A stretch of DNA of 64,000 nt from an uncultured Clostridium sp. (GCA_930986425.1 CAKNJR010000005.1:27638-91637), one strand, 5' to 3'. Positions 6,800 through 46,799 are shown, counted from the first letter of the stretch. Notes: generated from the letters alone by a model not told the origin. A program made the numbers and translations.

Positions 6800-6874
6800 A
6801 TTTTCCATCCCTTCTAACACATTAAAATTATGTAATCTTCTTTTTATATTTTTTTGCATTTTTACTTATAATAT

Positions 6875-6903: not shown

Positions 6904-6928
6904 TAACTTTTTCAATTTTTTTCAATTA

Positions 6929-6970
6929 GAAACGGTCCTTAAATGATTTTTTTCATTTAAGGACCGTTTC
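6929..6970 (-). terminator. Perfect 18-bp stem hairpin downstream of adhesin B
   Basis: GAAACGGTCCTTAAATGA, a TTTTTT loop, then TCATTTAAGGACCGTTTC. It lies 80 nt past the adhesin B stop. There is no clean U-tract on the minus strand, so terminator efficiency is uncertain. Confidence 0.5.
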
Positions 6971-7049
6971 TGCCTAAAAATATATCTGATTCCGCCTAAA
7001 ATATATTTTTAAGTATTAAATTACATATCTTTATTTAAAACATTTCTTC

Positions 7050-13784: not shown

Positions 13785-13864
13785 TTTTTACCCCTCTGTT
13801 TTCTTTTTAATTAATTTACATCGTTATTGTTTTATATTATTTTTCGACATTTTATCTATAATAT

Positions 13865-13893
13865 ACTATATATCAAGAATTTATTTTTTTCAA
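13865..13893 (-). promoter_or_regulatory. Putative sigma-A promoter of adhesin B (TTGAAA-17-TATAGT)
   Basis: The minus strand reads TTGAAA (13893..13888), a 17-nt spacer, then TATAGT (13870..13865). It is homologous to the adhesin A promoter block. Confidence 0.4.
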
Positions 13894-13956
13894 TATTTGT
13901 TAAAATTTTTATTATTTAAAATGCTACTTATTATATTCTATTTTCATTGGTAAAAA

Positions 13957-13984
13957 AATAATCGCTCTTTTTTGAGTGATTATT
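13957..13984 (-). terminator. Rho-independent terminator after adhesin C
   Basis: On the minus strand, AATAATCACTC - loop - GAGCGATTATT is followed by TTTTTTT. One G-U pair. It lies 60 nt downstream of the adhesin C stop. Confidence 0.55.
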
Positions 13985-14042
13985 TTTTATAGCTTCATCA
14001 ATATGTTTTTCATATTGTATTGAAATTTATAGTTAATTCAGA

Positions 14043-14654
14043 TTATATTACATATCTTTTTATTAAGAATACTCCTCCAGCGATAATTGCTAATGTTCCG
14101 GCTGTTATTCCTATATATAATGGTGCGCTACCTGTTACCATTGTTAATGCTACTGGTGCATCATCTATATCATCTTCTCCTTCTACTTTATTATTTGGAG
14201 TTGAGTCTATATCTGGTGTTTCACTTTCATTATAGTCTTCGCTTATTTCTGCTGTATTTATCATTACTCCCATGTTCTCTTCATCATTTATCCATGTTAG
14301 TACTATTTCTACTACTGCACTTTCTCCTGGCTCTAGTAATGTATCCTTTAATGCATCTGTTACTACTTTTCCATCTACTTCTCTCCAGCCTGGGTTATCT
14401 GCTTGATTGAATTCTAGTCCTTCTGGAATGTAGTCTGAAATTTCTGTTGCATATCCTGGTATTTCTCCTTCATTTGTTATTCTTATTTGATATCTGAATT
14501 TTATTATTGTGTTATCTATTCTGTCTTGGTTTAAGTCTACTCTTACTACTGGTTCTGGGTCTTGTTCTGCATAATGGCCTGTATCTTTTACTTTTTCTAC
14601 TCCGTCTTCTATTAGTATAACTTGACTTACCCATTTTCTTAATGCTAAGTCAAA
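14043..14654. repeat. Segmental duplication, copy 3 (3' end of adhesin C), shared by all three adhesin genes
   Basis: About 14067-14654 equals 7074-7661 (offset 6993) and 1601-2188. Antisense ORF 14087..14410 is identical to 7094..7417 and 1621..1944. The first mismatch I read is at 14655/7662. The last 8 codons are synonymous-variant. Confidence 0.8.
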
Positions 14655-17600: not shown

Positions 17601-17834
17601 ACAGTATATTGAAGCATTATCTCCTACCTCTGTTGTTCCTGTGCTATTATTATATTTTACAATTTTGAATATATCTTTTGAATTAAAAGTATATCTTCCT
17701 GTTTCTCTTTCTGTTGTTCTTCCTTTTAAGCCCAAATATATACCATTAACATCACTTACAGCATAATTATTTGTTGTAAACAATAAAATGGTTATTAAAA
17801 TTATTCCTATAATTACTCCTAATTTTTTTGTCAT
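14043..17834 (-). CDS. Surface adhesin C: thioester (TQxA-type) domain directly followed by 4 DUF11-like repeats, same C-terminal anchor
   Basis: The track ORF is 14043..17852. ATG 17834 (MTKKLGVIIG, AGAGAGG 7 nt upstream) is preferred because the predicted -10 box is at 17872-17877. Thioester signature SIYCVKAGPGFGS / IQQVAIWYFTNPDG. No CnaB repeats. The last roughly 200 aa are identical to A and B. Confidence 0.85.
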   Translation of the reverse strand: MTKKLGVIIGIILITILLFTTNNYAVSDVNGIYLGLKGRTTERETGRYTFNSKDIFKIVKYNNSTGTTEVGDNASIYCVKAGPGFGSESYQNTIVNYTQYFNMKNPDAIESPYRESLPTDMTTYNELIWVLDHLYIPAKTGATSDEIALANESKQNLLDNAGVSEDSFLRDSATYGQEIEDILECIQQVAIWYFTNPDGEYHNDSTETVEIAVDGESLIDKYGLDIVENEIDAIYHYLVQGAIDAVNGGYTYEDSIIGTSPITFIKNQATLTMDNSNYILGPYRIEEQSNGEYNLSAELYSSTGTISNAKVLDENRQEITTGSNLTEKIQTTIGNNFYISIPISSNITDATLAVNAEYYNTTQTLWTVGQASLANNQPVVIISRDKQNYRDATTIQITNPEFDLALRKFITSINGSPVKVSREPKITQEDLRALATGTADFDNGTTVTKTHTKTPLVVDKDDRIIYTIRIYNEGDIDGYADTIIDYLPAGLELVDASESTINTKYGWTEYASEPVSTDGSTTSRQAVVTDYLKDTLISAFDKDPDNGVYTIDYVDVQIECRVTKDVAEQDVSLKNVAEILGAHDITGGRVDRDSETGNLTNNEINNYLPGTSEEGKGYQDDDDYEELVMLGKYFDLSLRKFITAINDREITNREPEVDVNPLLSGETTATYNHTKNPVSVEAGDIVTYTIRVYNEGQVDGYVDEIVEHLPPYLEFIVNDDLNAEYGWIIDTSDETQRTLRTSILSRENDVENVIPAFDSNTNSLSYKEVKIRCRVVNTAPTLTNITNIAEITKYSNESNLIDRDNARDVVLPSDEELPNYKNEEINSGIAYIPGQEDDDDFEKVILQKFDLALRKFITGVNDEEITNRVPEVDTSLYGTTDEEGNLITNFTYNHTKDPVRVCQNDIVIYTIRIYNEGTMSGYAEEIKDDVPKGLIFLPENEVNQEYRWVMYDANGNVTENANEAAYIRTDYLSKAQEETEGENLLQAYDAETMEGPDYRDVRVAFRVTEPNTSDRIIINRAEISDDSDSEGEDVTDIDSTPDEWIDGEDDQDIEQIYVQYFDLALRKWVSQVILIEDGVEKVKDTGHYAEQDPEPVVRVDLNQDRIDNTIIKFRYQIRITNEGEIPGYATEISDYIPEGLEFNQADNPGWREVDGKVVTDALKDTLLEPGESAVVEIVLTWINDEENMGVMINTAEISEDYNESETPDIDSTPNNKVEGEDDIDDAPVALTMVTGSAPLYIGITAGTLAIIAGGVFLIKRYVI

Positions 17835-17871
17835 AATTTGACCTCTCTTCATATATTATTATACAATTTAT

Positions 17872-17996: not shown

Positions 17997-18025
17997 TTGA
18001 CTTTTTTCACATTTTTTGTTATTAT
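17997..18025 (+). promoter_or_regulatory. Putative promoter of the tRNA-Gly/tRNA-Cys unit (TTGACT-17-TATTAT)
   Basis: TTGACT at 17997-18002, a 17-nt spacer, TATTAT at 18020-18025, 15 nt before the tRNA 5' end. Confidence 0.45.
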
Positions 18026-18040
18026 AAATAACGTACTCAC

Positions 18041-18116
18041 GCGGGAATAGCTCAGTTGATAGAGCGTCGCCTTGCCAAGGCGAAGGTCACGGGTTTGAGC
18101 CCCGCTTCCCGCTCCA
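18041..18116 (+). tRNA. tRNA-Gly (anticodon GCC), CCA encoded
   Basis: Hand-folded cloverleaf. Acceptor GCGGGAA/TTCCCGC, D arm GCTC-AGTTGATA-GAGC, anticodon arm TCGCC-TTGCCAA-GGCGA, T arm ACGGG-TTTGAGC-CCCGC, discriminator U73, CCA. Positions 19 and 56 are unusual (see findings). Confidence 0.9.
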
Positions 18117-18208
18117 TATTATATTGTAGATATTTGTTTATATTATTGAACAAATATTTTTTATAGTTTTTTGTTCTATATAAACTTTAGTTGCATATAT
18201 TTTATTAT

Positions 18209-18282
18209 GGCGATATAGCCAAGTGGTAAGGCACGAGTCTGCAAAACTCTGATCCCCGGTTCGAATCCGGGTGTCGCCTCCA
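18209..18282 (+). tRNA. tRNA-Cys (anticodon GCA), CCA encoded
   Basis: Acceptor GGCGATA/TGTCGCC, D loop AAGTGGTAA with GG, anticodon loop CTGCAAA, T arm CCCGG-TTCGAAT-CCGGG, U73, CCA. Confidence 0.9.
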
Positions 18283-18321
18283 ACGACGAATCTGTTCGAA
18301 CTAATAGAACAGTATTGATAC

Positions 18322-18357
18322 AAAATCAATCAGAAAATAAAACTGGTTGATTTTTTT
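18322..18357 (+). terminator. Rho-independent terminator of the tRNA unit
   Basis: ATCAATCAG - 9-nt loop - CTGGTTGAT followed by TTTTTTT (18351-18357). Confidence 0.55.
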
Positions 18358-18409
18358 GTTGTCTATAAACAATATAAAAATCATCCAAATGAAAGGATGG
18401 TGCAAATAA

Positions 18410-18679
18410 ATGAAGATAATTAAGCAAGAATTACAATTTGAAGAAAGTCTAAAGCAAAGGCTAGAATTTATATGTGAATTTTCTAAAGTTACTCCTACTT
18501 TTATTAATGGTAGTATTAGAAAAATTGAAAAAACTAATCTCACATATATTGAACCACATAGAGTAATAATTAAAAATATTACATTCTTAGTTTTTAATTA
18601 TTCAAATGATGTATATATTTCAAATTTAACTAAAAAGATTAAATTATCAGAATTAGAAGAATATATAAAAAACATATAA
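18410..18679 (+). CDS. Hypothetical protein (89 aa)
   Basis: ORF with AAAGGATGG about 9 nt upstream. No recognisable motif. Confidence 0.4.
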   Translation: MKIIKQELQFEESLKQRLEFICEFSKVTPTFINGSIRKIEKTNLTYIEPHRVIIKNITFLVFNYSNDVYISNLTKKIKLSELEEYIKNI

Positions 18680-18689
18680 ATACCAGTAT

Positions 18690-18717
18690 TTGACATTTCT
18701 TAAAATTGTGGTATAAT
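18690..18717 (+). promoter_or_regulatory. Near-consensus promoter upstream of the recombinase gene (TTGACA-16-TGnTATAAT)
   Basis: TTGACA at 18690-18695, a 16-nt spacer ending in TGG, TATAAT at 18712-18717. Confidence 0.5.
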
Positions 18718-18842
18718 GTCTTATGTAAACATTTTAGTTTATGGAGATGATTATATGATTTTGAAAAAATTGCATTTTAAAATAAAAATTTTACAGAGAT
18801 GTCATTAGTATTAATTTGTACTTTTGATGTCTTTTTTGTTAG

Positions 18843-20777
<1,935 letters not shown>

Positions 20778-20819
20778 TTGTTGCAACTATTACTTATATA
20801 TTTTCTTTGTTGCAACAAT

Positions 20820-21040
20820 CAAATTAACGTGGCACGTTTTGTTTTTGCAATTAGCAAAAATGAAAGTGGCGATAGTTAATTTGGATAAAATTTATCTATG
20901 AAAGATAAATTTTATTGCCTCGCAGAGCCCCCGAGTTTTGATAGCATGTCAAAACTCATAGGGGGTTAGGACTTATGACATGGTCAAAGTCCTGTAAAAA
21001 ATACTTCGTATTTTTATGGAGCCTTCGGCTTAAAAAGAAT
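20820..21040 (+). promoter_or_regulatory. Hairpin-rich region upstream of the MobV gene, candidate oriT
   Basis: Perfect 13-bp inverted repeat ATAAAATTTATCT-ATGAA-AGATAAATTTTAT (20885-20915). CCCCCGAGTTTTGA...TCAAAACTCATAGGGGG (20928-20965). Further short inverted repeats (AGGACTT..AAGTCCT, AAAATAC-TTC-GTATTTT, AGCC-TTC-GGCT). Confidence 0.4.
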
Positions 21041-21059
21041 CTTCAAGGAGGTGCTTTTG

Positions 21060-22445
21060 ATGGAACAAGAATTAGCATATTCATTTCACTTAGGTAGTGA
21101 TAAAAACAAAAGTAAATTAGCCAAAAGAGTATCAAAAGATAATGTATCTGGTACTACTTCTCTTTCCAATAATGCTATTCAAAATGCAAACGATTTATCT
21201 AGAGTTAATAAGCATAATTTAAGAGATTATGATAAAAATAAAGAATTAATTAAAGTAATTTATGGTACAGATAATATTATAACTGATGTAAAAGATTTGT
21301 ATTTAAAAGAATTTGAAGAAGCAAAGATAGATTATAACAATAAGCAAAGTCGTGAAGATAGAAAAATAAAAAACTACTTCCAAAAAGTATGTGAATCTCA
21401 AAACGATATAGCTTGTGAAATTATAATAGAACTTGGAGATATGGATTTCTGGAATGATAAAGACCAAGAATATAGATTGAAAATGATTGATGTATATAAT
21501 GAACAAATAAAGGATTTAACTAAAATTGTGCCAACTTTTAAAATAGCAAATGCTACAATACATTTTGATGAAACTTCTCCACATATGCACATTGTAGGTG
21601 TACCAGTAGTTGAGAATTGTAATAGAGGGATGAAAAAACAAGTTGGAAAAAGCAAGCTATTTACTAAAACATCATTAACTGATATACAAGACAAAATGAG
21701 AAATGCCTGTATTAAGTCATATAATAAGTTTTATGAAGTTGATACTAGACTAAAAGAAAAACAAAAAGGTAGAAATCAAGATATAAATGTAAAAGATATG
21801 AGTAATTATAAAAAAATAAAAAAACAGTTGGACAAGAACGCACAAAAACTTGCTGAGGCAAATAATCAAACAGAAAAATTAGACAATAGCGGTAAAGATA
21901 TAAATTCAATATTAGATAAACTAAAGCCATCTAAACTTAATAAAAATAATAATCTTATTTCAAACGAGGATATTGAAAAAATCAAAAATTTTACAAAAGA
22001 TGTAAAAGATATTGCTAAAACAGTTAGAAGTGTAAATGACTTAAATATGGCTATCAAAGATTTTGAACATAGTTCCTTTGAAATAGCACAAGAAAATTCT
22101 TCACTAAAATATCAATTAGATTTAAAAACTGATGAAATTGATAGATTAAAAAAAGATTTGTCTGCAAAGGAAAAAATTATTAGTAAATTACAAGCAGAAA
22201 AAGAAAAAATAAAACAAGAATTACAGAAATTTAAAGACTTCTGGTATAGAATTATGGGACATTTCCATAAAAGAATTTGCTATGACAAAGATAATAACTA
22301 TAAAATAGTTAGTGATGACTTATACAAAAATGGTATATTTACTGATGATGAAAATGAAATTGCAAATAATATTGCTAGAAAAGTAAAACCAAAAGAAGAA
22401 CTAGAAAATAAGAGTAAAAAGAAAAATAATTATGAATTAAAATAA
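21060..22445 (+). CDS. MobV-family (Mob_Pre) relaxase
   Basis: HFDETSPHMHIVGVPV matches the HxDExxPHxH motif of MobV relaxases. K/E-rich coiled-coil C-terminal half. ATG 21060 has AAGGAGG 8 nt upstream (the track starts at GTG 21051). Confidence 0.85.
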   Translation: MEQELAYSFHLGSDKNKSKLAKRVSKDNVSGTTSLSNNAIQNANDLSRVNKHNLRDYDKNKELIKVIYGTDNIITDVKDLYLKEFEEAKIDYNNKQSREDRKIKNYFQKVCESQNDIACEIIIELGDMDFWNDKDQEYRLKMIDVYNEQIKDLTKIVPTFKIANATIHFDETSPHMHIVGVPVVENCNRGMKKQVGKSKLFTKTSLTDIQDKMRNACIKSYNKFYEVDTRLKEKQKGRNQDINVKDMSNYKKIKKQLDKNAQKLAEANNQTEKLDNSGKDINSILDKLKPSKLNKNNNLISNEDIEKIKNFTKDVKDIAKTVRSVNDLNMAIKDFEHSSFEIAQENSSLKYQLDLKTDEIDRLKKDLSAKEKIISKLQAEKEKIKQELQKFKDFWYRIMGHFHKRICYDKDNNYKIVSDDLYKNGIFTDDENEIANNIARKVKPKEELENKSKKKNNYELK

Positions 22446-22459
22446 GGAGTAAAAAAATT

Positions 22460-22765
22460 ATGAAAGAAAATAAAGTTGAGAATGTAATAAATATAATTAA
22501 AGATTTGAATACTAAAGATAAATTAAGATTAGGAATTTGCTTAACTACAAGTGATTGGGCTAATATTTTATATAATAAAACAGAAATGTATGAGAAATTT
22601 GATACTATGTTAAAAGAAATTGATGAAGAATGTAGAACTACTTTAGTAAATTTTGCAAAATATAAGATTGTAATGTTTACAATGGCTAAAATAATGGAGA
22701 TGGAAGAAACTGAAAGAAATAAGATAATTTTATATTTGTATAAAAGTTTAAATCATAAAATATAA
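22460..22765 (+). CDS. Hypothetical protein (101 aa)
   Basis: ORF 14 nt after the relaxase stop, with a GGAG RBS. No recognisable motif. Confidence 0.5.
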   Translation: MKENKVENVINIIKDLNTKDKLRLGICLTTSDWANILYNKTEMYEKFDTMLKEIDEECRTTLVNFAKYKIVMFTMAKIMEMEETERNKIILYLYKSLNHKI

Positions 22766-22801
22766 TACTTATCTAAAATGAAAAAAGGAAACTGTGAAAT
22801 T

Positions 22802-22830
22802 TTGCAAAAATGTTCAAAATATAGTATAAT
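22802..22830 (+). promoter_or_regulatory. Putative promoter (TTGCAA-17-TATAAT)
   Basis: TTGCAA at 22802-22807, a 17-nt spacer, TATAAT at 22825-22830, upstream of 22899..24257. Confidence 0.5.
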
Positions 22831-22898
22831 ATTAGTAGTATTTTAGATTAGAAAGGATTTTGAATTATATATACTAATTGAGAAATGAGGTGTAAAAG

Positions 22899-24257
22899 AT
22901 GAATTATGGAAAAGAGATTAACTATGACTTAATAGACGAATTATACTACGAATGGCGTAATGAACGTGATCCGTTCGCTCAAAGAAATAAAAGAGATGAA
23001 ATTAAAAGAAAAATATCTCCATATGAATTTTTAGTTTATAGTTCTAGAAATTCATATATGCCTTTTAAGATATTTAGAAATATTTTCGGATTATCAGATT
23101 TATTTGATACACTTGAAAAAATGCAAATGCAAGGCAAAGACATAAGTAATTTAACTAATCAATTATTATTAATAGAAACTCCAGAAGATATAAGAGATTT
23201 AAACAATTTTGCAAAAAGAGAGACAACTTCGGAAGTAAGTAATTTATATTGTGTATGTATGGGAAATAATATATTTAGATATGGAGATGTCAAAAGTATA
23301 GGGAAAAAATTTTTGAATATACATGTTAATAACTTAAGTTTAGAACAAATAGAATATATGATTAAATCACAAAATGATTATAAAGGTATACCAATTACTA
23401 TAACTATAGATAATATAGGGCAACTTCCATTAGATAAATTAGCTTATATTGAAAGTAAATTTGATGTTGAAGGAATACAGATATTAGACAGAGATAAAGT
23501 TAATCAAGCTCATCAAGGTGAACGTACTCCTTTAAATTTAAGAACTTATAAACAAGTTAGAACAATAGCAAATGATATTATTAGTAAACTTTATATTGAA
23601 AAGAATTCGAATTCAGATAAAATGCTTATTGATTTTCAACTTGCTATACAAATAATAGACGAGATTGCACACAGAATTGATTACGATTATGATGCAGAAA
23701 ATAAGCCACGTTTTTCTGATGAGGTAATAAATGCTAGTGGAATGGTAGGATTATTAACAGGAAAATCATTATGTAAGGGGTATTCGGAAATTTTAAGGAA
23801 TATTTTAAGTTGCGTAGATGTTGAATGCACAGTTATCGATGGTACTGATTTTAATAATAATGCTCATACATGGAATCAGGTTAAGTTAGGAGATATATGG
23901 TTTAATGTAGATTTGACTTATGCTAGAAATGCAATATGTAATGGAAAGCCATCTGGAGATTTGTTTATGTCAGATATGGCTTTTTATGGGAATAGAAAAC
24001 AATACACTTTTGAAAAGGGACAAGAGATTAATGGTAAAAAGGTAGAAAGTACTGTAATGATAGGAGGTCATTCATCACAAGTTTATGGTTCAAATTGTAG
24101 ACAATGTAGATCTTATGTTACTCCATATTTAACCTCAATTTTAATAGAAAAATCTAGAAATTATAATGAAAATTATAATGGAATTATACAATATGTAGGA
24201 AGTGACATTGAAAAAGCACGTTCTGAATCTAAAACAACTATTAACCCACAACGTTAA
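22899..24257 (+). CDS. Transglutaminase-like (Cys-His-Asp) domain protein
   Basis: 452 aa with a GAGGTG RBS. The C-terminal half has GKSLCKGYSEILRNIL ... NNAHTWNQVKLGDIWFNVDLT, the Cys...HxW...D core pattern of transglutaminase-like cysteine peptidases. Confidence 0.65.
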   Translation: MNYGKEINYDLIDELYYEWRNERDPFAQRNKRDEIKRKISPYEFLVYSSRNSYMPFKIFRNIFGLSDLFDTLEKMQMQGKDISNLTNQLLLIETPEDIRDLNNFAKRETTSEVSNLYCVCMGNNIFRYGDVKSIGKKFLNIHVNNLSLEQIEYMIKSQNDYKGIPITITIDNIGQLPLDKLAYIESKFDVEGIQILDRDKVNQAHQGERTPLNLRTYKQVRTIANDIISKLYIEKNSNSDKMLIDFQLAIQIIDEIAHRIDYDYDAENKPRFSDEVINASGMVGLLTGKSLCKGYSEILRNILSCVDVECTVIDGTDFNNNAHTWNQVKLGDIWFNVDLTYARNAICNGKPSGDLFMSDMAFYGNRKQYTFEKGQEINGKKVESTVMIGGHSSQVYGSNCRQCRSYVTPYLTSILIEKSRNYNENYNGIIQYVGSDIEKARSESKTTINPQR

Positions 24258-24275
24258 AGAAAATAATAAAAATGA

Positions 24276-24304
24276 TTTACAATAAAAAGAAATCTTAGTA
24301 TAAT
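24276..24304 (+). promoter_or_regulatory. Strong orphan promoter (TTTACA-17-TATAAT) driving a short plus-strand RNA
   Basis: TTTACA at 24276-24281, a 17-nt spacer, TATAAT at 24299-24304. No ORF follows. A terminator lies about 60-95 nt downstream. Confidence 0.5.
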
Positions 24305-33069: not shown

Positions 33070-35667
33070 TTAATGTGTAAATCTATTATTGAATTTTCTT
33101 CTTATATTTCCTGTAAATCTTCTTACTGCGGATATTTCACTTATATTGCCTCTTTGTACTCCAGCTACATTTTGCTCTACTTGTGTTATTGCATCATCTG
33201 CTGAAAGTCCAGAGTCTATATATCTATCTTGCTCAGCACGTATTAAATTATAATAGTCTTCTTCATATGGTTGATATTGCTCTGAGCCATCTAATAATGC
33301 TTTTGTGTGGTCCCTTATCCATGCATCATCTCTTCCTTGATATGTTTGGCCCGCTATATCTTTATAGTCTTTAGCAAATTTTCTTAAATTTGAATTTTCT
33401 TCCATTCTTGATATAACACCATTTGAAATATTCATACCTGTATTATATCCTGATATAGCATTTTCCACTCTTCCTGTTGCTAAACCTGCCGCTCCAAGCA
33501 TAATCGCTAGTGGTAATTTTCCCGCTTGTTTAAATCCGAATTTGGCTACGCCACCAATTGTCCTAAGTATTGGATTACCTCCTCCGCTTCTATTACTTCC
33601 ACTATTTGCTCCGGTTGTATTTGCTGATGCTGTCGCTGTTTGTGTCGCAGGATTTGTCATTCCTCCAGCTCCTGTAGCCGCCCCGGCAGTATTGGCTGCT
33701 CCTCCTATTCCGCCTGTTCCTGCTGCTGCATTTGCTGCTGCGGCTATTCCATTTGCTGGTGCTCCACCTGGCGCTGTTGGATTTGTAGTAGCTGGTTTTT
33801 GATTTGTCTTTGGATTACCTCTACTTGCATATCCCTTAACCTTAGCTCCAGATGATGCTGCTTTGGATACAGCACCAATTGCTGATGTAACCAATGCTGC
33901 TTGTGCAACTGTTTTTGCTACACTCTTTCCTTGGAAGTGGAATATCTCTTTTATAATATCCTCTGCTTCAAACATGAAAAATACCATAATTATTGCTACA
34001 ACAACAGTAGATATGTCATCTGCACTCATCGAAGTTATTGCTGTTTGTACCAATGCTAGATATGTTACACATTGAAATGGCTGAAGTAATATATTATATA
34101 CAAAGTTCTTAAACCAAGTATTTAGTGCTTGTGATTTTCCATCTCCCATTCTATCTATTGAATAAGTTACAGTTATTAATGGCGATATCATAATCAAAAA
34201 TGCTATTGTAACCATACGTTTTACATATGTACAGAAAAATATAAATGTCATTACGGCTAACATTACATATATAACCATATTTGCTAGCTGTGATGTGAAA
34301 GATAATATATCTGAAAAAGACATAGCATTATCATATGCTTCTTCCATAACTGTTGCACCATTTGTTGAACCATTTCTTGCTATTTTTAATACCTCTACTA
34401 ATCCATCATTTATATTTATAATAAATATCATTATATAGTGTAAAACGAATAGTAAAACAATACTAACTACCCAGTCTGTTAACATTCTTTTATATCTTGC
34501 TTTTTCTTCTGCAACAGAAGATATAGCCATTCTTATTCCTATATAAAGTGCCATTATTGCTAATATAACTGCTGCTATATTTCTTATTGCTACATACCAA
34601 ATTGATACTTGCTCTCTTATTAGATTAACTGTATCTGCATTTACACCTGTGACTGTTTCGAAAAAATTAATTCCAAGTATTGGCACTTCGTTGAATAATA
34701 TTTGGTCTAATGATAAGCCTGACATTACACTATCAGAGCCATTAACTGCTAGACCAATAATAGACATCAAAACTCTTGCACCCATCATCGGTAATAATTT
34801 TACGAAATAGAAAAATATACCTACAATACCATTTAGAAATGATGCTAATGCTCCACCTACACCTGCTACAATTCCTGCTACTCCTCCGCCACTATCGTTT
34901 CCATTAAGTTCTGTGTTAATATCTGCAGATTCTACTATTCCGTCCTCTACTCCTTGCAATGATGGAAACTCATCTCCAATCACTGCTAAAGCTTCCCTTA
35001 AAGCTTCTTCGCATCTCTGAACCTCATCTGTTGTTGTACTTGCATTATATGCTTCAGCATAAGCTCTTCTTATTTTATCTCCATATTTTTCAACTGCTGA
35101 CCTTGCTGTCTGTTCAGCAGTCCCTGCTCCCATTCCTGCATTGCTCATAAGATAATTAGTAAATACATCTATTAGGTAATCATCTGTTAATTCTAATGGA
35201 CTATCAGTTTCTACAGGTTCATCTTCATCTGGTTCATCTTCAGCCGGAGGTTGTTCTTCGGTACCATTAACAACTTCTTCTACATTTGCTAGTCCTACCA
35301 TTGTGTCGATTCCAGATACGTATACCGTTGATAATCCTGGTACACTTTCTAATGCTTGTTTCAATGAATCTTCACATTTTTTTACTTCATCTGTTTCTGA
35401 GCTATTTGCATATAAATCGTTATATTCAGCTACAATCCAGTCTCCATATGTATAAACCATATTTTCTGCTACTGACTCTGCTGTATCACCTGGTAATAGG
35501 CTTCCTCCATTTCTCGCAAAATCCTCGCTGCTAATATAACTCTCAAATAATTGTTGTAGGAAATTCGTATCTACTGTTAAAGTATTAGCTGCCCTAACAA
35601 AATTTGTTATTATTATAAGTATAATAATTGGCATTATTATTTTTTTTAATAATTTTTTAGCCTTCAT
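33070..35667 (-). CDS. VirB6/TrbL-like polytopic membrane protein, paralogue 1 (duplicated N-terminal ectodomain, G/A/T/N-rich tail)
   Basis: 865 aa with a signal/anchor. Two roughly 90-aa repeats (..DEVKKCEDSLKQALESV.. and ..DEVQRCEEALREALAVI..). Core motifs VPILGINFFE, VSIWYVAIRNIAAV, LYIGIRMAISS, KARYKRML and GDGKSQALNTWFKNF with at least 6 TM helices. Low-complexity tail PGGAPANGIAAAANAAAGTGGIGGAANTAGAATGAGG. Confidence 0.65.
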   Translation of the reverse strand: MKAKKLLKKIIMPIIILIIITNFVRAANTLTVDTNFLQQLFESYISSEDFARNGGSLLPGDTAESVAENMVYTYGDWIVAEYNDLYANSSETDEVKKCEDSLKQALESVPGLSTVYVSGIDTMVGLANVEEVVNGTEEQPPAEDEPDEDEPVETDSPLELTDDYLIDVFTNYLMSNAGMGAGTAEQTARSAVEKYGDKIRRAYAEAYNASTTTDEVQRCEEALREALAVIGDEFPSLQGVEDGIVESADINTELNGNDSGGGVAGIVAGVGGALASFLNGIVGIFFYFVKLLPMMGARVLMSIIGLAVNGSDSVMSGLSLDQILFNEVPILGINFFETVTGVNADTVNLIREQVSIWYVAIRNIAAVILAIMALYIGIRMAISSVAEEKARYKRMLTDWVVSIVLLFVLHYIMIFIININDGLVEVLKIARNGSTNGATVMEEAYDNAMSFSDILSFTSQLANMVIYVMLAVMTFIFFCTYVKRMVTIAFLIMISPLITVTYSIDRMGDGKSQALNTWFKNFVYNILLQPFQCVTYLALVQTAITSMSADDISTVVVAIIMVFFMFEAEDIIKEIFHFQGKSVAKTVAQAALVTSAIGAVSKAASSGAKVKGYASRGNPKTNQKPATTNPTAPGGAPANGIAAAANAAAGTGGIGGAANTAGAATGAGGMTNPATQTATASANTTGANSGSNRSGGGNPILRTIGGVAKFGFKQAGKLPLAIMLGAAGLATGRVENAISGYNTGMNISNGVISRMEENSNLRKFAKDYKDIAGQTYQGRDDAWIRDHTKALLDGSEQYQPYEEDYYNLIRAEQDRYIDSGLSADDAITQVEQNVAGVQRGNISEISAVRRFTGNIRRKFNNRFTH

Positions 35668-35680
35668 GTTTCACCCCTTT

Positions 35681-38600
35681 TTATAGTCCTTCCATAAACT
35701 TATTTGCGCCTCTGTATTTAGTTTTTGCCTTACCTTCAAAATCTTTTATGTCTTTATCTAGCTTAAATAAGTCTTTTGTTAAGTCTTGATATCCTTTGTC
35801 TTCTATTACAGCTTCTGTTGCACTTTCTTGTATAATTTTTACTATATCTGATTTAGTATATGTTGTTGTGCTTTCATCTTTTGTATCATTTTCATTATTA
35901 GAATTATCTGAAGGAGAATCTGCATATCCAAATTTGGATTCGTTTCTTCTTGAATCGTTTTCTGATTTTGTTTTTTCTCCATCATATCCATATTTTGAGT
36001 CATTATTTGTATCTACTGTCTGAGCATCGATGCCTTCATTTCCTTCGCTTCTTTCTTCTGCCTCTTTCTTATTTCGTAAAAATACAACTTTTGTTCTTGC
36101 CTTTTCTGATAATATACTTCTTAAAGAATCATTTTTTGTAATTTTTACTCCAATTGCCTGAGATATTGCATCTATTATATCATTTATTGAATAATTATCA
36201 ATAGTTGTTATGTTATTTTCTTTTATATAGTCATCTATTAATTCTTCTAGTTTGCTCTCACTTACTTCTTCTAATACAATACTTGCATCTGCCTTAAATG
36301 AATTAAACTTGTTTTCATCAAGTTTTTTCATTGCTTCTGCCTTTTCCTCTATGCTTGTCTCTTTACTGTTAATCTTATCTAATAAATCTGCTGCACTGTA
36401 TTGTTTGTCTCTCTTCTTTGTGTATTTTTCTGCTTTATAATTCATATCTGATTGTTTTATTATAATTCCATCTTTTTGTGCTTTATAGTGTTTCTTTCCC
36501 CTTGTTTTCTTTAATGTATTTAAGCCAGTTGTAAACATTGTTAATCCAGCTACTGGGTTTACCACTGCCATAGGTGCTGCAAGTAATGTACTTATAGAAC
36601 CAGTTGCTGCTTTCTTAATGAAATCAACGTTCGACTTAAATCTTTTCTTTCTGTTTTTAGAAATACTATTTTTAATCTGTCTAGCCTTTACACCAACAAC
36701 TCCTTTTTCTCTAGAAAGTCTACGTAATTGTGCTTGTCTTTGAACAGCTGTTAATGCTTGATTTCTCCATGTCCTTGGAGAGTTACCCTGGTTATTACCA
36801 CCTTGATTATTTTGCATATTTCTTGCTACATTTTCTATACGCGTGTCAACCGCATTTAGTGCACTATTAACTCTACTACCAACATTTTCACTTGCATTTG
36901 GAAATGTTCTCCCCAAATATCTTGTAAATCTTCTTCCTGTTCTAACAGCTCCTGTACCAAGTCCTTTTGCAAATCCAAACGTTGTTTTCGCCATACTTCC
37001 TACGAACATGGCACCAGCAAAATTTTGCATAACTTCTTTACGGCTTTCTTTTCTAGCTGCTTCTTCTGCCAAATCTGATTTACTTTCAAAGTTGAATATA
37101 CTTCTAAATATATCATCTGCATCTAGCATAAAATTCATAAATACTAATGCAATTATATATCCCACAAGTGATGAAAAAGCAAAATTAATTGCTGCAGTCA
37201 TTAATACAGTATATACTATTGCATGAACAGTTTGAAGTAATACATTTAACGTGAAATCATATAACCAACTACTAAATGATGAACCTTTTTTACCTCTAGC
37301 GCTATCTATTGCATATTTTGCTCCTATAAATGGAGCAATTATTACAAGAATTAATATTGTGAAAGCTCTTTTGATGTAAACCCATAGGAATTTTACCCAT
37401 ATTACTACAAGTGCTATGTACATTATAGTTCCAGCCAAACCTACGCTTAAACGTAAATCATATGCTCTTGTTCTAATGGTTTCATAAATTGAATCTTCTA
37501 TCCACCCATTAGAAGTCATCATGTCTTGTGATGCCTTTTCTAGTAATGCCACTAAACTATTATTAGTATTTATTATTAATATCATTATAAAGTGTACAAC
37601 TAAAACAATTACTAGTGCTTGTACCCATCCAATCATCATAGTTTTGTATTTTGCTTTATCATTTGGTATTGTTGATAAAGCCATTCTTATTCCTATATAT
37701 ATAATTATTATGGCTAATGCAATTATTACTAAGTTTCTGAATGATGTATACCAAACTGATACAGTAGTTCTAATCACACCTACTGCACTTCCTTCAGAAA
37801 CAGGTTGTCCACCAGCAGTATCTGAAAAGAAATTTATATCTAAAATTGGAATTCTATTAAATATTATATCTTCTATTGTATATAAAGGTTCTTGATATTT
37901 ATCTTCGTCACTTCCTCCTGCTATTTCTATTCCTAAAAATAGTTTGCCAAAGAAGTTTGCAGTGTCATCAACAACTTGTCCACCATTGCCTACACTATCA
38001 TTAAAGTTATGGTTAGTATTGCTATAATCTTTTACTTCTCCTCCTTGGTTAGATACAGTATTTTTAGTTTGTTCAACAATACTACTATCTATTGGACCTT
38101 CTCCTTTTGCATCAGCTCCGTCTTCTGCTAAGAATATAGCCCCTGAATAACTGCTTAATACTGAGTTAGGATATGAATTATCCATTTCCGAGAAAAAAGT
38201 ACCACTTGCTTCAAAAGAAAATGAACCTTTATTTAAAAAGTCATAGCCCATTGAACCATCACCATTTGCTGGAGCCCATAGTGCTATTCCTGCCACCGAA
38301 TGACTTCCTGTTTGTGTGTACATTGAGGCAACTCTTCCGCCCATACTATGTCCGACAAGGCCTATTTTACTACTATCTATATCATATCTACTTGACATAT
38401 TTGAAATAGCTGAGTTCACATATTCATACATATTTGATAGTGTATATGCTGATTCTGCTGCTGTACTATCTCCACAACCAGGGAAGTCAATTGTTACAGC
38501 TGCTATTCCATGTTGAGCCAAAATGTTTCCTAATCTTATAAAATGGTCATCATCATTTCTTCTATTTCCAGTATATCCATGACACATAACTACTAATGGC

Positions 38601-38839
38601 ATTGCTTCTGTTGTTCCATTTGGTACCATTATAGTTGCATTTATTGGATTCCCTGGTGTTGATGATGATTGAAAAGTTGTATTATTTGTAGTTACTGCAT
38701 AAATTCTATTAGCATTACTTGGTGGTGTCGTTTCTACTGTATCATCAGTTGCTTTTACTGAAAACATCGAAAAAAGAATAGTAAAAGCAAATATGCATAT
38801 TAATACTGTGGTAATCTTGTTGTATAATTTCACTTTCAT
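35681..38839 (-). CDS. Alpha/beta-hydrolase fused to a VirB6/TrbL-like polytopic domain, paralogue 2
   Basis: 1052 aa. N-terminal signal/anchor, then a hydrolase fold (VVMCHGYTGN, nucleophile elbow LVGHSMGG, late NTNHNF His). Core motifs IPILDINFFS, VSVWYTSFRNLVI, IYIGIRMALST and KAKYKTMM with multiple TM helices. Long K/R/E/N-rich C-terminal tail. Confidence 0.7.
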   Translation of the reverse strand: MKVKLYNKITTVLICIFAFTILFSMFSVKATDDTVETTPPSNANRIYAVTTNNTTFQSSSTPGNPINATIMVPNGTTEAMPLVVMCHGYTGNRRNDDDHFIRLGNILAQHGIAAVTIDFPGCGDSTAAESAYTLSNMYEYVNSAISNMSSRYDIDSSKIGLVGHSMGGRVASMYTQTGSHSVAGIALWAPANGDGSMGYDFLNKGSFSFEASGTFFSEMDNSYPNSVLSSYSGAIFLAEDGADAKGEGPIDSSIVEQTKNTVSNQGGEVKDYSNTNHNFNDSVGNGGQVVDDTANFFGKLFLGIEIAGGSDEDKYQEPLYTIEDIIFNRIPILDINFFSDTAGGQPVSEGSAVGVIRTTVSVWYTSFRNLVIIALAIIIIYIGIRMALSTIPNDKAKYKTMMIGWVQALVIVLVVHFIMILIINTNNSLVALLEKASQDMMTSNGWIEDSIYETIRTRAYDLRLSVGLAGTIMYIALVVIWVKFLWVYIKRAFTILILVIIAPFIGAKYAIDSARGKKGSSFSSWLYDFTLNVLLQTVHAIVYTVLMTAAINFAFSSLVGYIIALVFMNFMLDADDIFRSIFNFESKSDLAEEAARKESRKEVMQNFAGAMFVGSMAKTTFGFAKGLGTGAVRTGRRFTRYLGRTFPNASENVGSRVNSALNAVDTRIENVARNMQNNQGGNNQGNSPRTWRNQALTAVQRQAQLRRLSREKGVVGVKARQIKNSISKNRKKRFKSNVDFIKKAATGSISTLLAAPMAVVNPVAGLTMFTTGLNTLKKTRGKKHYKAQKDGIIIKQSDMNYKAEKYTKKRDKQYSAADLLDKINSKETSIEEKAEAMKKLDENKFNSFKADASIVLEEVSESKLEELIDDYIKENNITTIDNYSINDIIDAISQAIGVKITKNDSLRSILSEKARTKVVFLRNKKEAEERSEGNEGIDAQTVDTNNDSKYGYDGEKTKSENDSRRNESKFGYADSPSDNSNNENDTKDESTTTYTKSDIVKIIQESATEAVIEDKGYQDLTKDLFKLDKDIKDFEGKAKTKYRGANKFMEGL

Positions 38840-38938: not shown

Positions 38939-39886
38939 TTAATTCAGTCCATGTAAGAATGAGTTAATCATTAATTGGAAGAAATACACATATCCTAATA
39001 ATGGCGCTTTTATTAATGAAATTAATATACCCGCTAAGTAGTCCATAAATCCACTTATTCCATCAAATAGCCATTTAAAAATATCTACTTGTTCTTCATA
39101 TATAATTGTTGTTGGCATACCATCAAAAGTAAATTCGTCTGCAATTGCATCTAAGTCAACTTCTTCTGAGTCTAGTTCTACACCAGATGGGCTTGTTGCT
39201 CCATTTAAGCCTCCAACACCGCCTACTCCTGCTCCTTCTAAATATTCAAAAGAAGCATTTGCAGCGGTTTCTGCTGTTACTCTTCCGACCCATCCTTGGT
39301 ATCCACCATTGCTGTTACAATCACTTATTGCACTTCCATAATAAAGTCTTTTGGTATACATTCCTATTGACATACCATCTCCAACATATACAGCTACGTG
39401 GTGCCACATTACAATAATATCTCCTGGTTGCCATTCATCTGAAGAGCAATCTACTCTTTCAAATCCATTTTTTACATAAGGTGCATTATTAGGATTTGAT
39501 GTTCCCGAACTGGCATATGGGCATTTTACAAATTCTGTATATTCTTCTTCTCCTATTCCTAAGGCATGATGAATTACAAATGATACAAATGCTACACAGT
39601 GAAAACTATATATTGTTGTTGTATCTGAATCACTGACAGGAAGGTTATACCCTGCAGTTCCTCCATACCTTGCTTGTGAAGAGTGCTTGTTGGCAAAATC
39701 AATTGCCCATGCTGCTATGGTTTCTCCTGCTTCTTGTACAGTATGGCCTGTAGTTGGTCCTAATGAGGAAGAACCACCATCATTTATTTGCATTTGCGGA
39801 GCTCCTAATGAAATTGATAAGGAGAAATTCCAAAATACGTCTGCAATTAGTAGTATAACTATTATTTTAGTAAATATTTTTCTCAC
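38939..39886 (-). CDS. NlpC/P60-family cell-wall hydrolase with C-terminal hydrophobic segment
   Basis: 315 aa. GTG start overlaps the upstream stop by 1 nt, with GGAGGAG upstream. Signal peptide. Cys in YSFHCVAFVSFV and His in GDIIVMWHHVAVYVGDG, the NlpC/P60 Cys...His pattern. C-terminal FMDYLAGILISLIKAPLLGYVYFF. Confidence 0.65.
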   Translation of the reverse strand: MRKIFTKIIVILLIADVFWNFSLSISLGAPQMQINDGGSSSLGPTTGHTVQEAGETIAAWAIDFANKHSSQARYGGTAGYNLPVSDSDTTTIYSFHCVAFVSFVIHHALGIGEEEYTEFVKCPYASSGTSNPNNAPYVKNGFERVDCSSDEWQPGDIIVMWHHVAVYVGDGMSIGMYTKRLYYGSAISDCNSNGGYQGWVGRVTAETAANASFEYLEGAGVGGVGGLNGATSPSGVELDSEEVDLDAIADEFTFDGMPTTIIYEEQVDIFKWLFDGISGFMDYLAGILISLIKAPLLGYVYFFQLMINSFLHGLN

Positions 39887-41137: not shown

Positions 41138-42331
41138 CTATTTATTTCCAGGGATTTTTACGCTCTTCAATCCTTTATCTGCTGTACCTCCGCTGATTTT
41201 TAATGCACTTCTTACAACTTTTTCTGCATTATCTAATGAAATTATAAATATAATTCCTATTATAGGTGCTGTTTTTGCGATTTCACCTGCTGAAAGCATA
41301 AACACTACATATAATATTAGATGCATTGGTTGTATGAATACTTGAATCATTATTTCTTTAAACCAATTATTAAACGCTTGTGGTTTTCCATCGCCTACGG
41401 CATCAATTGGGTATGATAAACAAATAAATGGTGCGATAACTGTCATTATAAAAATTTTTAACACCCTGAATAGGTATATAACAAAAAACTTTATTTCATA
41501 AAATACTAGTACGCAATTCATTGTTGTATATATTAATTTTTCCCATCCTTCGGCTCTTGATGTTTCTGCTGCTAGTCCTGAAAGCATTGCTGTTTCAACA
41601 TCATTCACATCCTGATTATTCTCAATTGCTCTATTTATGAAATCTACAACTATATCAGACAAGCTTATCATTATTGCTACTATATATTGAATAACAAATA
41701 ATAGTATTACTCCGACTAGCCAACTCATAAGCATTTTCTTGTATTTAGCTGAATCTTCTGCACTTGCTGAAATTGCCATTCTTATTCCAACATATACTAA
41801 TGTTATTGCACATCCAACTGCTGCTATATTTCTTGTTGCAACATACCAAACTGCTGCATTATCTTTTAAGGTATTAGAAATATCTGAATTTGGTCCTTCA
41901 GGAGTTTCAGCAAACATGTTAATATTAAATAGTGGATATTGATTTGTTAGCAATTTTCCTATTGTAAAAAATTCTGTTTGTTGAACGCCATCGGTGAAAT
42001 TAGCCGCTTGGTTTGTTGCAACAGCTTGGAGTACCAAATTTATTGTATTTGCTGCCATTGTACCTATGCTGGTTATTGCATTGGCAGTCGTTTCTTCTTC
42101 TGCTTCGCTTGTTCCAATATCGACATTCTCTGATTGTACAGAAGAATTTGAACCATCAGATGTTACAGTTGATTGTCCATCCATTAATTCATTAAATGAT
42201 TCTTCTGGGTTTGAAGATGAAGAACTGTCTGGTATATCAAAAGTATGGTCATTTAAGGCCGATACTTTAGGGGTAAGAAGAATCGCAATAGTAATTATCA
42301 TTACTAATATTGTTATTATTTTTTTTCTCAT
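41138..42331 (-). CDS. VirB6/TrbL-like polytopic membrane protein, paralogue 3 (minimal form)
   Basis: 397 aa with a signal peptide. Core motifs YPLFNINMFAE, AAVWYVATRNIAAV, VYVGIRMAISAS, SAKYKKML and GDGKPQAFNNWFKEI, with 5-6 TM helices. Confidence 0.65.
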   Translation of the reverse strand: MRKKIITILVMIITIAILLTPKVSALNDHTFDIPDSSSSSNPEESFNELMDGQSTVTSDGSNSSVQSENVDIGTSEAEEETTANAITSIGTMAANTINLVLQAVATNQAANFTDGVQQTEFFTIGKLLTNQYPLFNINMFAETPEGPNSDISNTLKDNAAVWYVATRNIAAVGCAITLVYVGIRMAISASAEDSAKYKKMLMSWLVGVILLFVIQYIVAIMISLSDIVVDFINRAIENNQDVNDVETAMLSGLAAETSRAEGWEKLIYTTMNCVLVFYEIKFFVIYLFRVLKIFIMTVIAPFICLSYPIDAVGDGKPQAFNNWFKEIMIQVFIQPMHLILYVVFMLSAGEIAKTAPIIGIIFIISLDNAEKVVRSALKISGGTADKGLKSVKIPGNK

Positions 42332-45522: not shown

Positions 45523-45975
45523 CTATTTTTCCTCCTTTGTATTTGCTTTATTAGCAGTTTGTTTTGGTGTTCCAACAACTTTTCCTATAATATTATCTAA
45601 AGAAAGGCTATCTAAAGCACTAGCATAATCTGCTTCTTTTCTGTCAACTGCATATGTATATACTTTATTAGTCTTTTTAAAAACTATATACCTTTTTATT
45701 ATATCATCAATTGAATCTCCACCAACATTCTTGGCTAGTTTTGACGTTCCTGAAGCTGGCATTTTAACAGTTGCTATGGCATAACCTATTAAAGCACATA
45801 CTCCAATAAAAATATACCCTAATATATCTATGCCTAAGATAACACCAAATATAAAGTAGAATACTAATCCTATAACTCCTCCTATTGCTGTGTAAATCAA
45901 AGATTTAGCAGTAAAAATATATAATATCCTACTTTCTCCTTTTAAATTATTACTTGGAATATAGTAACTTCCCAT
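45523..45975 (-). CDS. VirB3-like (PrgI/TcpE-type) two-TM protein
   Basis: 150 aa with two adjacent TM helices (LIYTAIGGVIGLVFYFIFGVILG / ILGYIFIGVCALIGYAIATV). It sits immediately upstream of the VirB4 region, as in Gram-positive T4SS modules. Confidence 0.55.
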   Translation of the reverse strand: MGSYYIPSNNLKGESRILYIFTAKSLIYTAIGGVIGLVFYFIFGVILGIDILGYIFIGVCALIGYAIATVKMPASGTSKLAKNVGGDSIDDIIKRYIVFKKTNKVYTYAVDRKEADYASALDSLSLDNIIGKVVGTPKQTANKANTKEEK

Positions 45976-45990: not shown

Positions 45991-46368
45991 TTATGCAAAA
46001 ATTGAATTTCCTAAATTTATTATTATTGCAAACAATCCTGTTGCTCCATAAATTAAAACAGTGGCTATAACTAATCCAATAAGTTTTTGTTTTATATTAG
46101 CTTTACCTTGTGGGTCTGTAATCATATATTGTATTCCAAGGTACATATATGCAATAACAAGTACAACAGAAGCAATGGCTACTAAAACTTGTCCAATTGG
46201 TCTAAGTATATCCCATGCTTCCTCAGTAGTTATTACACTTGATGTACTTCCTTGGCTAATAAAGTCATCCCCTGCGTCTTTTATGTTTTGTAGTGCAAAA
46301 ACTTGATTGCTACTAAAGATTATAGCTATTAAAATAATGATGTATAATACTTTTTTTATTTTTTTCAT
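45991..46368 (-). CDS. VirB2/T4SS-pilin-like small membrane protein, copy 2
   Basis: 125 aa. Signal peptide ending VFA, then two TM helices separated by YMITDPQGKANIKQKL. Confidence 0.6.
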   Translation of the reverse strand: MKKIKKVLYIIILIAIIFSSNQVFALQNIKDAGDDFISQGSTSSVITTEEAWDILRPIGQVLVAIASVVLVIAYMYLGIQYMITDPQGKANIKQKLIGLVIATVLIYGATGLFAIIINLGNSIFA

Positions 46369-46442: not shown

Positions 46443-46799
46443 TTAAATATTATTTAATGCCATTCCTCCAATTAAGCCAACTAGTGAACCTGCTGCAAAT
46501 AATATAACTGCTCCAACTGCTATATATATAAACTTTTTCTTAAGTTCAGCTTTGGCTTCAGGTGCTGCCCACATATATTTTATACCAGCAAACATAACAG
46601 CTATAACTGCTGCTGCATATAGAATTATTTGTGCAACCCAAATAATTTGTCCACCAATACTATTAGCCACAGCGTCTGATACATATATATCATCCATGTT
46701 AGATGGCACATCTATTCCTGCATATGCTACATTGCTCATCATTAAGAAATATGAAAAAATTAGAGTTAACACAGATGTTATTTTTGTGATTTTTTTCAT
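46443..46799 (-). CDS. VirB2/T4SS-pilin-like small membrane protein, copy 1 (first gene of the operon)
   Basis: 118 aa. Signal peptide ending AYA, then two TM helices separated by YMWAAPEAKAELKKKF. Confidence 0.6.
   Translation of the reverse strand: MKKITKITSVLTLIFSYFLMMSNVAYAGIDVPSNMDDIYVSDAVANSIGGQIIWVAQIILYAAAVIAVMFAGIKYMWAAPEAKAELKKKFIYIAVGAVILFAAGSLVGLIGGMALNNI

Follow-up and report, generated by a model that had tools for sequence, protein, structure and literature searches.

The window analysed here, a stretch of 64,000 nucleotides from an uncultured Clostridium sp. (GCA_930986425.1, CAKNJR010000005.1:27638-91637), carries on its minus strand a gene for a 1052-residue protein in which a predicted signal peptide, an esterase-like alpha/beta-hydrolase, a membrane core resembling the VirB6 channel subunit of type IV secretion systems (T4SSs) and a charged tail follow one another in a single chain (Table 1). 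A Shine-Dalgarno sequence, AAAGGAG, lies 7-8 nucleotides 5' of the ATG; scans for promoters and terminators performed no better than on shuffled sequence. The signal segment is hydrophobic at residues 9-27 and closes with V-K-A at residue 30, after which the hydropathy scan encounters the next hydrophobic helix only at residue 370. The original prediction, made by a model from the sequence alone, had pointed to six motifs in the two domains, and all of them could be located: VVMCHGYTGN (residues 83-92), LVGHSMGG (161-168) and NTNHNF (274-279) in the hydrolase, and IPILDINFFS (330-339), VSVWYTSFRN (360-369) and IYIGIRMALS (381-390) in the core.

That the first 300 or so residues form a serine hydrolase, as had been proposed, is borne out by family, structure-database and modelling results alike. 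In a search with hidden Markov models (HMMs) the region matches Pfam Abhydrolase_1 far above the cut-off (57.1 against 25.8 bits, E 2.7e-15), with Hydrolase_4 (41.8 against 27) and Abhydrolase_6 (41.9 against 26.3) also above theirs and weak matches to the peptidase families S33 (Hydrolase_4), S15 and S9. The top sequence match in the PDB is the Thermoanaerobacter lipase TTL (7q4h, E 4e-16), and ferulic-acid and cinnamoyl esterases are found as well. The AlphaFold2 model of residues 1-320, built with 15 homologues, has a mean predicted local distance difference test (pLDDT) of 87.4 and a predicted template modelling score (pTM) of 0.82, and up to residue 302 its strands and helices alternate in the canonical way. 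Compared with the PDB using Foldseek, it is closest to Lactobacillus ferulic-acid esterases, TTL lipase and PET46, with E down to 4e-18, target-normalised template modelling (TM) scores of 0.78-0.82, approximately 20% identity and 270-283 aligned columns on esterases of 250-265 residues. Against viral structures the model found generic alpha/beta-hydrolases only and no lysin-specific relative, and NCBIfam provides no equivalog-level name, all matches being far below the cut-offs.

The residues expected of an active enzyme are all strictly conserved. Across 15 fusion proteins, 41-96% identical to the one in the window, the H87-G88 oxyanion motif, the G163-H-S165-M-G-G elbow and H277-N-F do not vary, and the HG motif, the elbow, Ser165, Asp243 and His277 are also invariant across 18 domains drawn from all the architectures in which this esterase occurs. 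In the model Asp243 comes after the strand formed by residues 234-240 and His277 after that of 268-272. Asp240 was also considered as the catalytic acid and rejected, as it is replaced by glycine in three of the 18 domains; it is the invariance of Asp243 that identifies it as the probable acid. From its sequence, the N-terminal domain is apparently a complete and catalytic alpha/beta-hydrolase. Two cysteines, Cys86 beside the oxyanion HG and Cys122 in a PGCGDS motif (38480-38584), are likewise invariant in the esterase subfamily in every architecture, and in the exported domain the two might be joined by a disulfide.

The joining of the two domains is not an artefact, which had been raised as a concern when the fusion was first noticed. 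Among 5.8 billion proteins searched, 15 clusters share the full-length architecture; they span 965-1073 residues, stay in frame down to 41% identity and have coverage of 96-100% in all but one case (P0004, 88%). In the assembly collection 37 blocks contain the exact sequence, and the identical protein, amid the same neighbours, could be read on 23 or more contigs of separate assemblies. A relative with 63% identity is found on five contigs of more than 1 Mb, one of them of 1.555 Mb, and five of 80 species-representative genomes carry the in-frame fusion. Relative to L001, the closest species-level relative, the ratio of nonsynonymous to synonymous substitution rates (dN/dS) is 0.15 for the esterase (dS 0.69), 0.13 for the core and 0.37 for the tail. 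In one lineage (L083 and L084, two samples with identical sequence) an esterase of 306 residues and a core of 702 residues lie in overlapping frames parted by an A7 homopolymer, where one A fewer would restore the fusion (L083 5330-5460, L084 5052-5182). This arrangement could represent phase variation, frameshifting at a slippery site or a true split.

Between residues 370 and 568 the hydropathy scan shows approximately six hydrophobic helices. Direct comparisons of this core with VirB6 gave little. Neither the protein nor any of 46 family members matches Pfam TrbL (PF04610) at E up to 0.1, and aligning the core family with 121 TrwI/VirB6 sequences in hhalign gave a probability of 0.08, with only a 38-column patch at a proline-containing helix. 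A family profile run against all PDB sequences found no VirB6, but only NlpC/P60 proteins, contributed by NlpC-bearing members, and coiled-coil noise from the tail; when 72,556 plasmids were searched with the full-length protein by tblastn, the only hits at E 1e-5 were generic alpha/beta-hydrolases, with none to the core. A connection with the T4SSs of plasmids emerged only when the shortest paralogue in the locus was used at relaxed E and a local HMM search was then run. In that search the core-family HMM scored 52, 43 and 42.5 bits on three plasmid proteins, one from Clostridium botulinum and two from Peribacillus asahii, while 105 reversed or window-shuffled decoys reached at most 3.2 bits. 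The C. botulinum protein is encoded directly 3' of VirB4, and the P. asahii proteins likewise have VirB4 as a neighbour. The match at 42.5 bits covers residues 161-347 of a 693-residue P. asahii protein that is annotated "type IV secretion system protein" and whose residues 210-323 themselves score above the Pfam TrbL/VirB6 cut-off (26.0 against 25.9 bits).

Structure comparison points in the same direction. The AlphaFold2 model of residues 300-1052 has a mean pLDDT of only 69.5, with values of about 70-89 over most of the core, and with this model the top five Foldseek matches among 350,542 PDB chains are all R388 TrwI/VirB6, aligned over about 256 of 260 residues, with E of only 0.38-1.0, target-normalised TM scores of 0.32-0.50 and probabilities of 0.41-0.90. 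Family members also match the NCBIfam conjugation membrane-protein families MMCAP2_0566, Mbov_0396 and pLS20_p028, below cut-offs, and 23 of the 46 give a sub-threshold match to T4SS_pilin (PF18895) on the first helix hairpin (here 15.9 against 26.6 bits, residues 354-418). We accept the term VirB6-like because the T4SS context, the intermediate sequences and the structure matches support it despite the failed direct tests. The core is thus supported as a VirB6 relative of the extended type, with a remote homology that runs through intermediates; of the VirB6 assignment in the original prediction, the context, the transitive HMM link and the Foldseek result stand behind it, whereas neither a direct TrbL match nor an hhalign signal does.

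The tail, first put at roughly 350 residues, is in fact about 460 residues long. It is rich in charged residues (K+R 18%, D+E 14%) and asparagine (8%), contains a further hydrophobic stretch at residues 747-773 and is predicted to be mostly helical, with pLDDT of 70-85 and two disordered gaps. The Pfam scan and the family profile against PDB sequences gave no family match for it, and it is kept in relatives of 711 residues that have no N-terminal enzyme.

By mapping 120 homologues onto the protein with BLAST we found a sharp junction at residues ~297-320, just ahead of the YTIEDIIFNRIPILDINFF motif, where homologues without the N-terminal domain begin to align; within the linker the pLDDT of the model falls below 50 at residues 310-312. 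The segment ahead of this junction behaves as an interchangeable slot. In relatives it holds a signal peptide only (about 711 residues in total), NlpC/P60 (about 990 residues), NlpC/P60 together with an endolysin-like domain (P0065, ELLD E 7.5e-36), the esterase with NlpC/P60 (P0037) or the esterase alone. Two alleles, P0009 (974 residues, with a cassette) and P0016 (719 residues, with none), are 97.9% identical over 703 residues, have signal peptides that are 100% identical and differ only by the cassette, and a second 90% cluster also mixes the two forms (982 and 715 residues).

The same esterase subfamily (39-46% identity) is found in long single-pass proteins combined with other wall domains, namely glucosaminidase and M23 (P0085, encoded in an equivalent T4SS locus with the same flanking genes), glucosaminidase (P0068) and CHAP/NlpC (P0079). 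Within the T4SS family the esterase travels with peptidoglycan-hydrolase modules. Its nearest standalone relatives, of about 306 residues and 39% identity, are encoded outside T4SS loci, one of their clusters having 8265 members; since they bear an N-terminal membrane anchor, the subfamily is presumably extracytoplasmic. In the window itself the gene upstream encodes a probable partner enzyme, an NlpC/P60-like protein whose entire length has its homologue in the first ~300 residues of the NlpC/P60-core fusions, and among the 80 genomes a separate NlpC/P60 gene lies upstream of every esterase-core gene.

The fusion gene is the fourth gene downstream of VirB4 in an operon that runs from two pilins through PrgI/VirB3, the VirB4 N-terminal part, the VirB4 ATPase, a 397-residue VirB6-like paralogue, a 409-residue protein, NlpC/P60 and the fusion gene to an 865-residue paralogue; the three core paralogues share 31-35% identity. 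The whole locus (26526-46799) is syntenic and chromosomal in 80 species-level genomes of uncultured gut Clostridia (L001-L080; for example CAG:793, CAG:354, CAG:571, Candidatus Scatovivens and Candidatus Merdicola), where the conserved order spans from an M16 peptidase to a PBP5-type carboxypeptidase and VirB4 is 72-95% identical. No relaxase and no coupling protein were found within the T4SS locus. An integrative conjugative element was considered and rejected, the chromosomal flanks being the same in the 80 genomes. Together these features suggest a T4SS that is vertically inherited and possibly non-conjugative.

Table 1. Features of the fusion gene and of the surrounding T4SS operon, in window coordinates
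Feature	Position	Strand	Evidence or remark
Whole gene, 1052 residues: signal peptide, esterase, VirB6-like core, charged tail	35681..38839	-	Single unbroken open reading frame, ATG start
Signal peptide or signal anchor (predicted), residues 1-30, MKVKLYNK...FSVKA	38750..38839	-	Hydropathy
Alpha/beta-hydrolase, carboxylesterase-like, predicted ectodomain, residues 43-312	37904..38713	-	Pfam, PDB, AlphaFold2, Foldseek; boundaries from BLAST map of 120 homologues
Ser165 codon, nucleophile in G-H-S-M-G	38345..38347	-	Invariant in 18 domains, all architectures
Asp243 codon, probable catalytic acid	38111..38113	-	Invariant in 18 domains
His277 codon, catalytic base in N-T-N-H-N-F	38009..38011	-	Invariant in 18 domains
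Acidic linker at cassette/core junction, residues 303-319, GIEIAGGSDEDKYQEPL	37883..37933	-	pLDDT dip and starts of homologue alignments
VirB6-like polytopic core, residues 320-590, YTIEDIIFNRIPILDINFF motif and about six hydrophobic helices	37070..37882	-	Hydropathy, HMM link, Foldseek
Charged helical C-terminal extension, residues 591-1052, 462 residues	35684..37069	-	Composition
NlpC/P60-like gene, 315 residues, probable partner enzyme, upstream of fusion gene	38939..39886	-	Weak Pfam NlpC_P60 match
Third VirB6-like paralogue, 865 residues, directly downstream of fusion gene	33070..35667	-	35% identical to core
Minimal VirB6-like paralogue, 397 residues, directly after VirB4	41138..42331	-	31% identical to core; NCBIfam MMCAP2_0566 E 2.2e-9
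VirB4 ATPase domain, 650 residues	42346..44298	-	NCBIfam CD1110-family VirB4 E 1.6e-66; Pfam P-loop_TraG
VirB4 N-terminal TraC-like part, membrane-anchored, separate gene, 396 residues	44332..45522	-	NCBIfam VirB4_plasma, positions 80-221
PrgI/VirB3-like protein	45523..45975	-	Pfam PrgI E 5e-4; position before VirB4 conserved
Two VirB2/TrbC-type pilin genes	45991-46368, 46443-46799	-	Pfam TrbC 32.8, T4SS_pilin 29.7 and 31.9 bits, all above cut-offs

Several further features of the locus were observed. The apparent division of VirB4 into a TraC-like and an ATPase gene is maintained in all related loci, and the homologue of the N-terminal protein in L081 carries PF26593, TraC-like. In the Walker A motif of the ATPase (residues 262-271, GKSGAGKG-VT) a glycine takes the place of the canonical serine or threonine after the lysine, both in the window and in 53 related loci; GKS is retained in at least 15 more distant loci and in the plasmid homologues. 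The N-terminal ectodomain of the 865-residue paralogue holds two copies of a tandem repeat, ...TDEV.(K/R)CE(D/E).L(K/R).AL..., and its tail a long low-complexity stretch rich in alanine, glycine, asparagine and threonine. A 6.5-kb contig binned as Candidatus Saccharibacteria (L032, CAZCZD010000042.1) carries the order 409-residue protein, NlpC, core, core at 35-40% identity, and is either a mis-binning or a link to the T4SSs of Patescibacteria.

Beyond the operon, three giant surface proteins (1760, 2244 and 1269 residues) with repeated SpaA prealbumin-like domains and a C-terminal DUF11 are encoded at 1577-17852. A homologue of these follows the PBP5 gene in several related loci, and they may be adhesins of the same system. 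The sole relaxase of the window, Mob_Pre (21051-22445), lies with a large serine recombinase (18858-20777) in a plus-strand block (18000-24300) that has an inverted GC skew, also encodes a transglutaminase-like protein and is missing in relatives where PBP5 abuts the adhesin gene; the block is probably an inserted mobilisable element. Among housekeeping genes at 59843-61000 there is a 385-residue protein that weakly matches the flagellin N-terminal family and also has a weak match to a type IV pilin-like N-terminal methylation motif.

On balance, and with only slightly better than even confidence, we take the protein to be a VirB6-type subunit of a monoderm pilus-type T4SS that bears an extracytoplasmic serine carboxylesterase and remodels the cell wall in cis. 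The signal sequence would export the protein so that the esterase comes to lie on the outer face of the membrane, where the acidic linker of ~17 residues would tether it to the conserved IEDIIFN..PILDINFF element and on to the six-helix core. If R388 VirB6 is a guide, several copies may ring the base of the channel or of a VirB2 pilus. The esterase would then act on the producer's own envelope, jointly with the NlpC/P60 endopeptidase encoded immediately upstream, and could remove ester-linked substituents such as O-acetyl groups of peptidoglycan or acyl and D-alanyl esters of wall polymers. Local opening of the wall would let the apparatus pass, so that an accessory activity of the VirB1 type would be mounted on VirB6. 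The role in envelope remodelling that we infer is backed by the pattern of domain swaps, because the slot exchanges the esterase with peptidoglycan hydrolases.

A number of observations weigh against this assignment. The homology to VirB6 is remote, with neither the TrbL search nor the hhalign comparison detecting it directly. The cassette is dispensable, being missing from most loci and from an allele nearly identical to one that has it (P0016 against P0009), and the frameshift in L083 and L084 parts it from the core. The nearest solved structures, cytoplasmic feruloyl esterases and a lipase, share about 20% identity with the domain and are uninformative about a substrate in the wall. The peptidoglycan O-acetyl esterases and the teichoic-acid D-alanyl esterases that have been described have other folds.

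Other explanations were considered, some concerning what the protein is and some what it does. The separate frames at the A7 run in L083 and L084 are what one would expect if the fusion were an assembly or frameshift artefact, or the esterase a decaying passenger without function; this we regard as practically negligible, being contradicted by the identical protein on contigs from separate assemblies, by the architecture kept in frame at 41-96% identity and by the invariant triad with its dN/dS of 0.15. There is rather more to be said for the membrane part being some other T4SS component, for example a VirB2-like hairpin with added helices, as none of the 46 members matches TrbL, half of them (23) match T4SS_pilin weakly at the first hairpin, and both the hhalign probability against the TrwI subfamily (0.08) and the Foldseek E to VirB6 (only 0.4-1) are poor. 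We nevertheless think this improbable, for the core HMM scores far above its decoys over the very region of the Peribacillus protein that passes TrbL, the best five PDB chains are all VirB6 over nearly the full length of the core, and true pilins are encoded by separate genes. The size, the helix count, the hydrophilic tail and the position after VirB4 also fit an extended VirB6 (PMC12857230, PMC8557374).

As to function, the esterase might instead act in trans, as an effector-like lipase or wall esterase directed at the envelope of another cell touched by the pilus, whether partner, prey or recipient; the cassettes would then be polymorphic weapons, or tools suited to particular partners. Amidase and lipase effectors are known from other contact-dependent systems, and a papain-like amidase paired with an alpha/beta-hydrolase is reminiscent of them. 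The cassette is also present or absent between near-identical alleles and patchy among close species, and the machine is probably no plain conjugation system, given that giant adhesins follow the locus and that neither a relaxase nor a coupling protein is encoded in it. Yet the short covalent linker to a polytopic membrane protein would confine the esterase to the producer's own wall unless it were cleaved off, no immunity-like gene covaries with the cassette, and the domains that share the slot belong to the classes of VirB1-like wall hydrolases of T4SSs (PMC12857230), so that we consider action in trans unlikely. About as unlikely, in our view, is a related possibility in which the cassettes are interchangeable envelope-degrading modules borne on VirB6 by a fixed, relaxase-less pilus T4SS and tuned to the envelope of a partner cell, not that of the producer, in an obligatory cell-cell interaction of small-genome gut Clostridia, be it attachment to other bacteria, feeding on them or uptake of their DNA, as has been suggested for Patescibacteria. 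Alternatively, the hydrolase could process a component of the machine itself, for instance as a peptidase or deacylase that matures VirB2-type pilins at a VirB6 platform. VirB6 has been proposed as a platform for pilin assembly (PMC12857230; preprint 10.64898/2025.12.18.695078), two pilin genes lie in the same operon and the domain has weak matches to S33, S15 and S9. However, its top structure and sequence matches are carboxylesterases and not peptidases, most loci have the same pilins without the cassette, and the domain recurs with peptidoglycan hydrolase domains and not with pilins, which makes such a role rather improbable.

If the esterase does remodel the producer's wall from VirB6, the finding bears on the open question of how Gram-positive T4SSs pass across their own thick wall. 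The only wall-crossing helpers of these systems known to us are separate VirB1-like glycosidases and peptidases. Here a wall-enzyme module is built into the VirB6 subunit itself, which would place the enzyme at the exit point of the channel or pilus, and the set of enzymes includes a serine esterase, a hint that ester-linked wall decorations can hinder assembly. The original prediction knew of no such attachment of an esterase to a T4SS channel component, and in line with this our literature search found no paper on VirB6 fused to an esterase or to NlpC/P60. It likewise found nothing relevant on T4SSs in TANB77, which we tentatively take to be the GTDB order of the host metagenome-assembled genomes (MAGs), and no source in the protein and assembly collections searched names any protein of the fusion family. 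The alleles that are 98% identical and differ by the cassette only provide a ready-made natural experiment. The locus is moreover a candidate for a non-conjugative T4SS: it has true VirB2 pilins, lacks genes for DNA processing and occurs in many uncultured gut Clostridia, which are abundant yet unstudied.

Extended VirB6 proteins are the closest described counterpart, and in the Rickettsiales they occur as tandem copies. In Gram-positive systems they consist of a block of helices with a long hydrophilic extension (PMC12857230), pLS20 gene 49 being one example (PMC8557374), and those of the Rickettsiales were described by Bao et al, 2009, as cited in PMC12857230. The protein resembles Tn916 Orf15, pLS20 gene 49 and the Rickettsiales proteins in having a block of about 5-6 hydrophobic helices with a hydrophilic extension within 700-1100 residues, in being encoded near virB4 and in having several paralogues per locus; a helix block with a large hydrophilic extension and a length of at least ~700 residues is what we find here, and the cassette-free relatives have about 711. 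Unlike in those proteins, for which no enzymatic ectodomain is described, the core here is preceded by an esterase (NlpC/P60 in relatives), and its sequence similarity to TrbL/VirB6 is only transitive.

The VirB1-like hydrolases PrgK (pCF10), TraG (pIP501), Orf14 (Tn916) and CwlT (ICEBs1) are modular, with CHAP/NlpC, LytM/M23 and glycosidase domains (PMC12857230). They are membrane-tethered, extracytoplasmic and wall-opening and are encoded in T4SS operons, and the esterase subfamily is fused to just such domains in related loci. However, what they cut is the glycan strand or the peptide stem, their described domains include no alpha/beta-hydrolase esterase, and they are separate single-pass proteins and not part of VirB6. 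By Pfam the 1052-residue protein has the esterase only and no peptidoglycan-cleaving domain, the NlpC/P60 being in the separate gene upstream. It is therefore not a member of the VirB1-like group, and it probably works alongside such hydrolases.

The esterase shares its fold (TM 0.78-0.82), its GXSXG elbow, its HG motif and the Ser-Asp-His order with ferulic-acid and cinnamoyl esterases and with TTL lipase (7z2u, 3pf8, 7q4h). These enzymes are soluble, have a single domain and act on plant phenolic esters or acylglycerols, whereas this domain, at about 20% identity to them, is predicted to be exported, has two invariant cysteines and is part of a secretion subunit. Mycobacteriophages use the esterase LysB with the peptidoglycan hydrolase LysA to breach a Gram-positive-type envelope, the target of LysB being mycolyl-arabinogalactan. 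The likeness lies in a serine esterase placed beside a peptidoglycan hydrolase; LysB, on the other hand, is a phage lysis protein that is not integrated in the membrane, the context is unrelated and the viral matches of our esterase are generic only.

As a system, the locus resembles the pilin-rich T4SSs of Patescibacteria (PMC12102498), which are also chromosomal, belong to monoderms and have VirB2-like pilins (PF18895/PF04956), PrgI, VirB4 and VirB6 with no relaxase. It differs from them in its hosts, which are MAGs of gut Clostridia, in having three VirB6-like paralogues and in the presence of wall hydrolase modules, most of the Patescibacteria clusters having been reported without VirB1 (PMC12102498). 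A VirB6 pentamer has been proposed as the base on which Gram-positive T4SSs assemble VirB2 pili (preprint 10.64898/2025.12.18.695078), and the locus fits this proposal.

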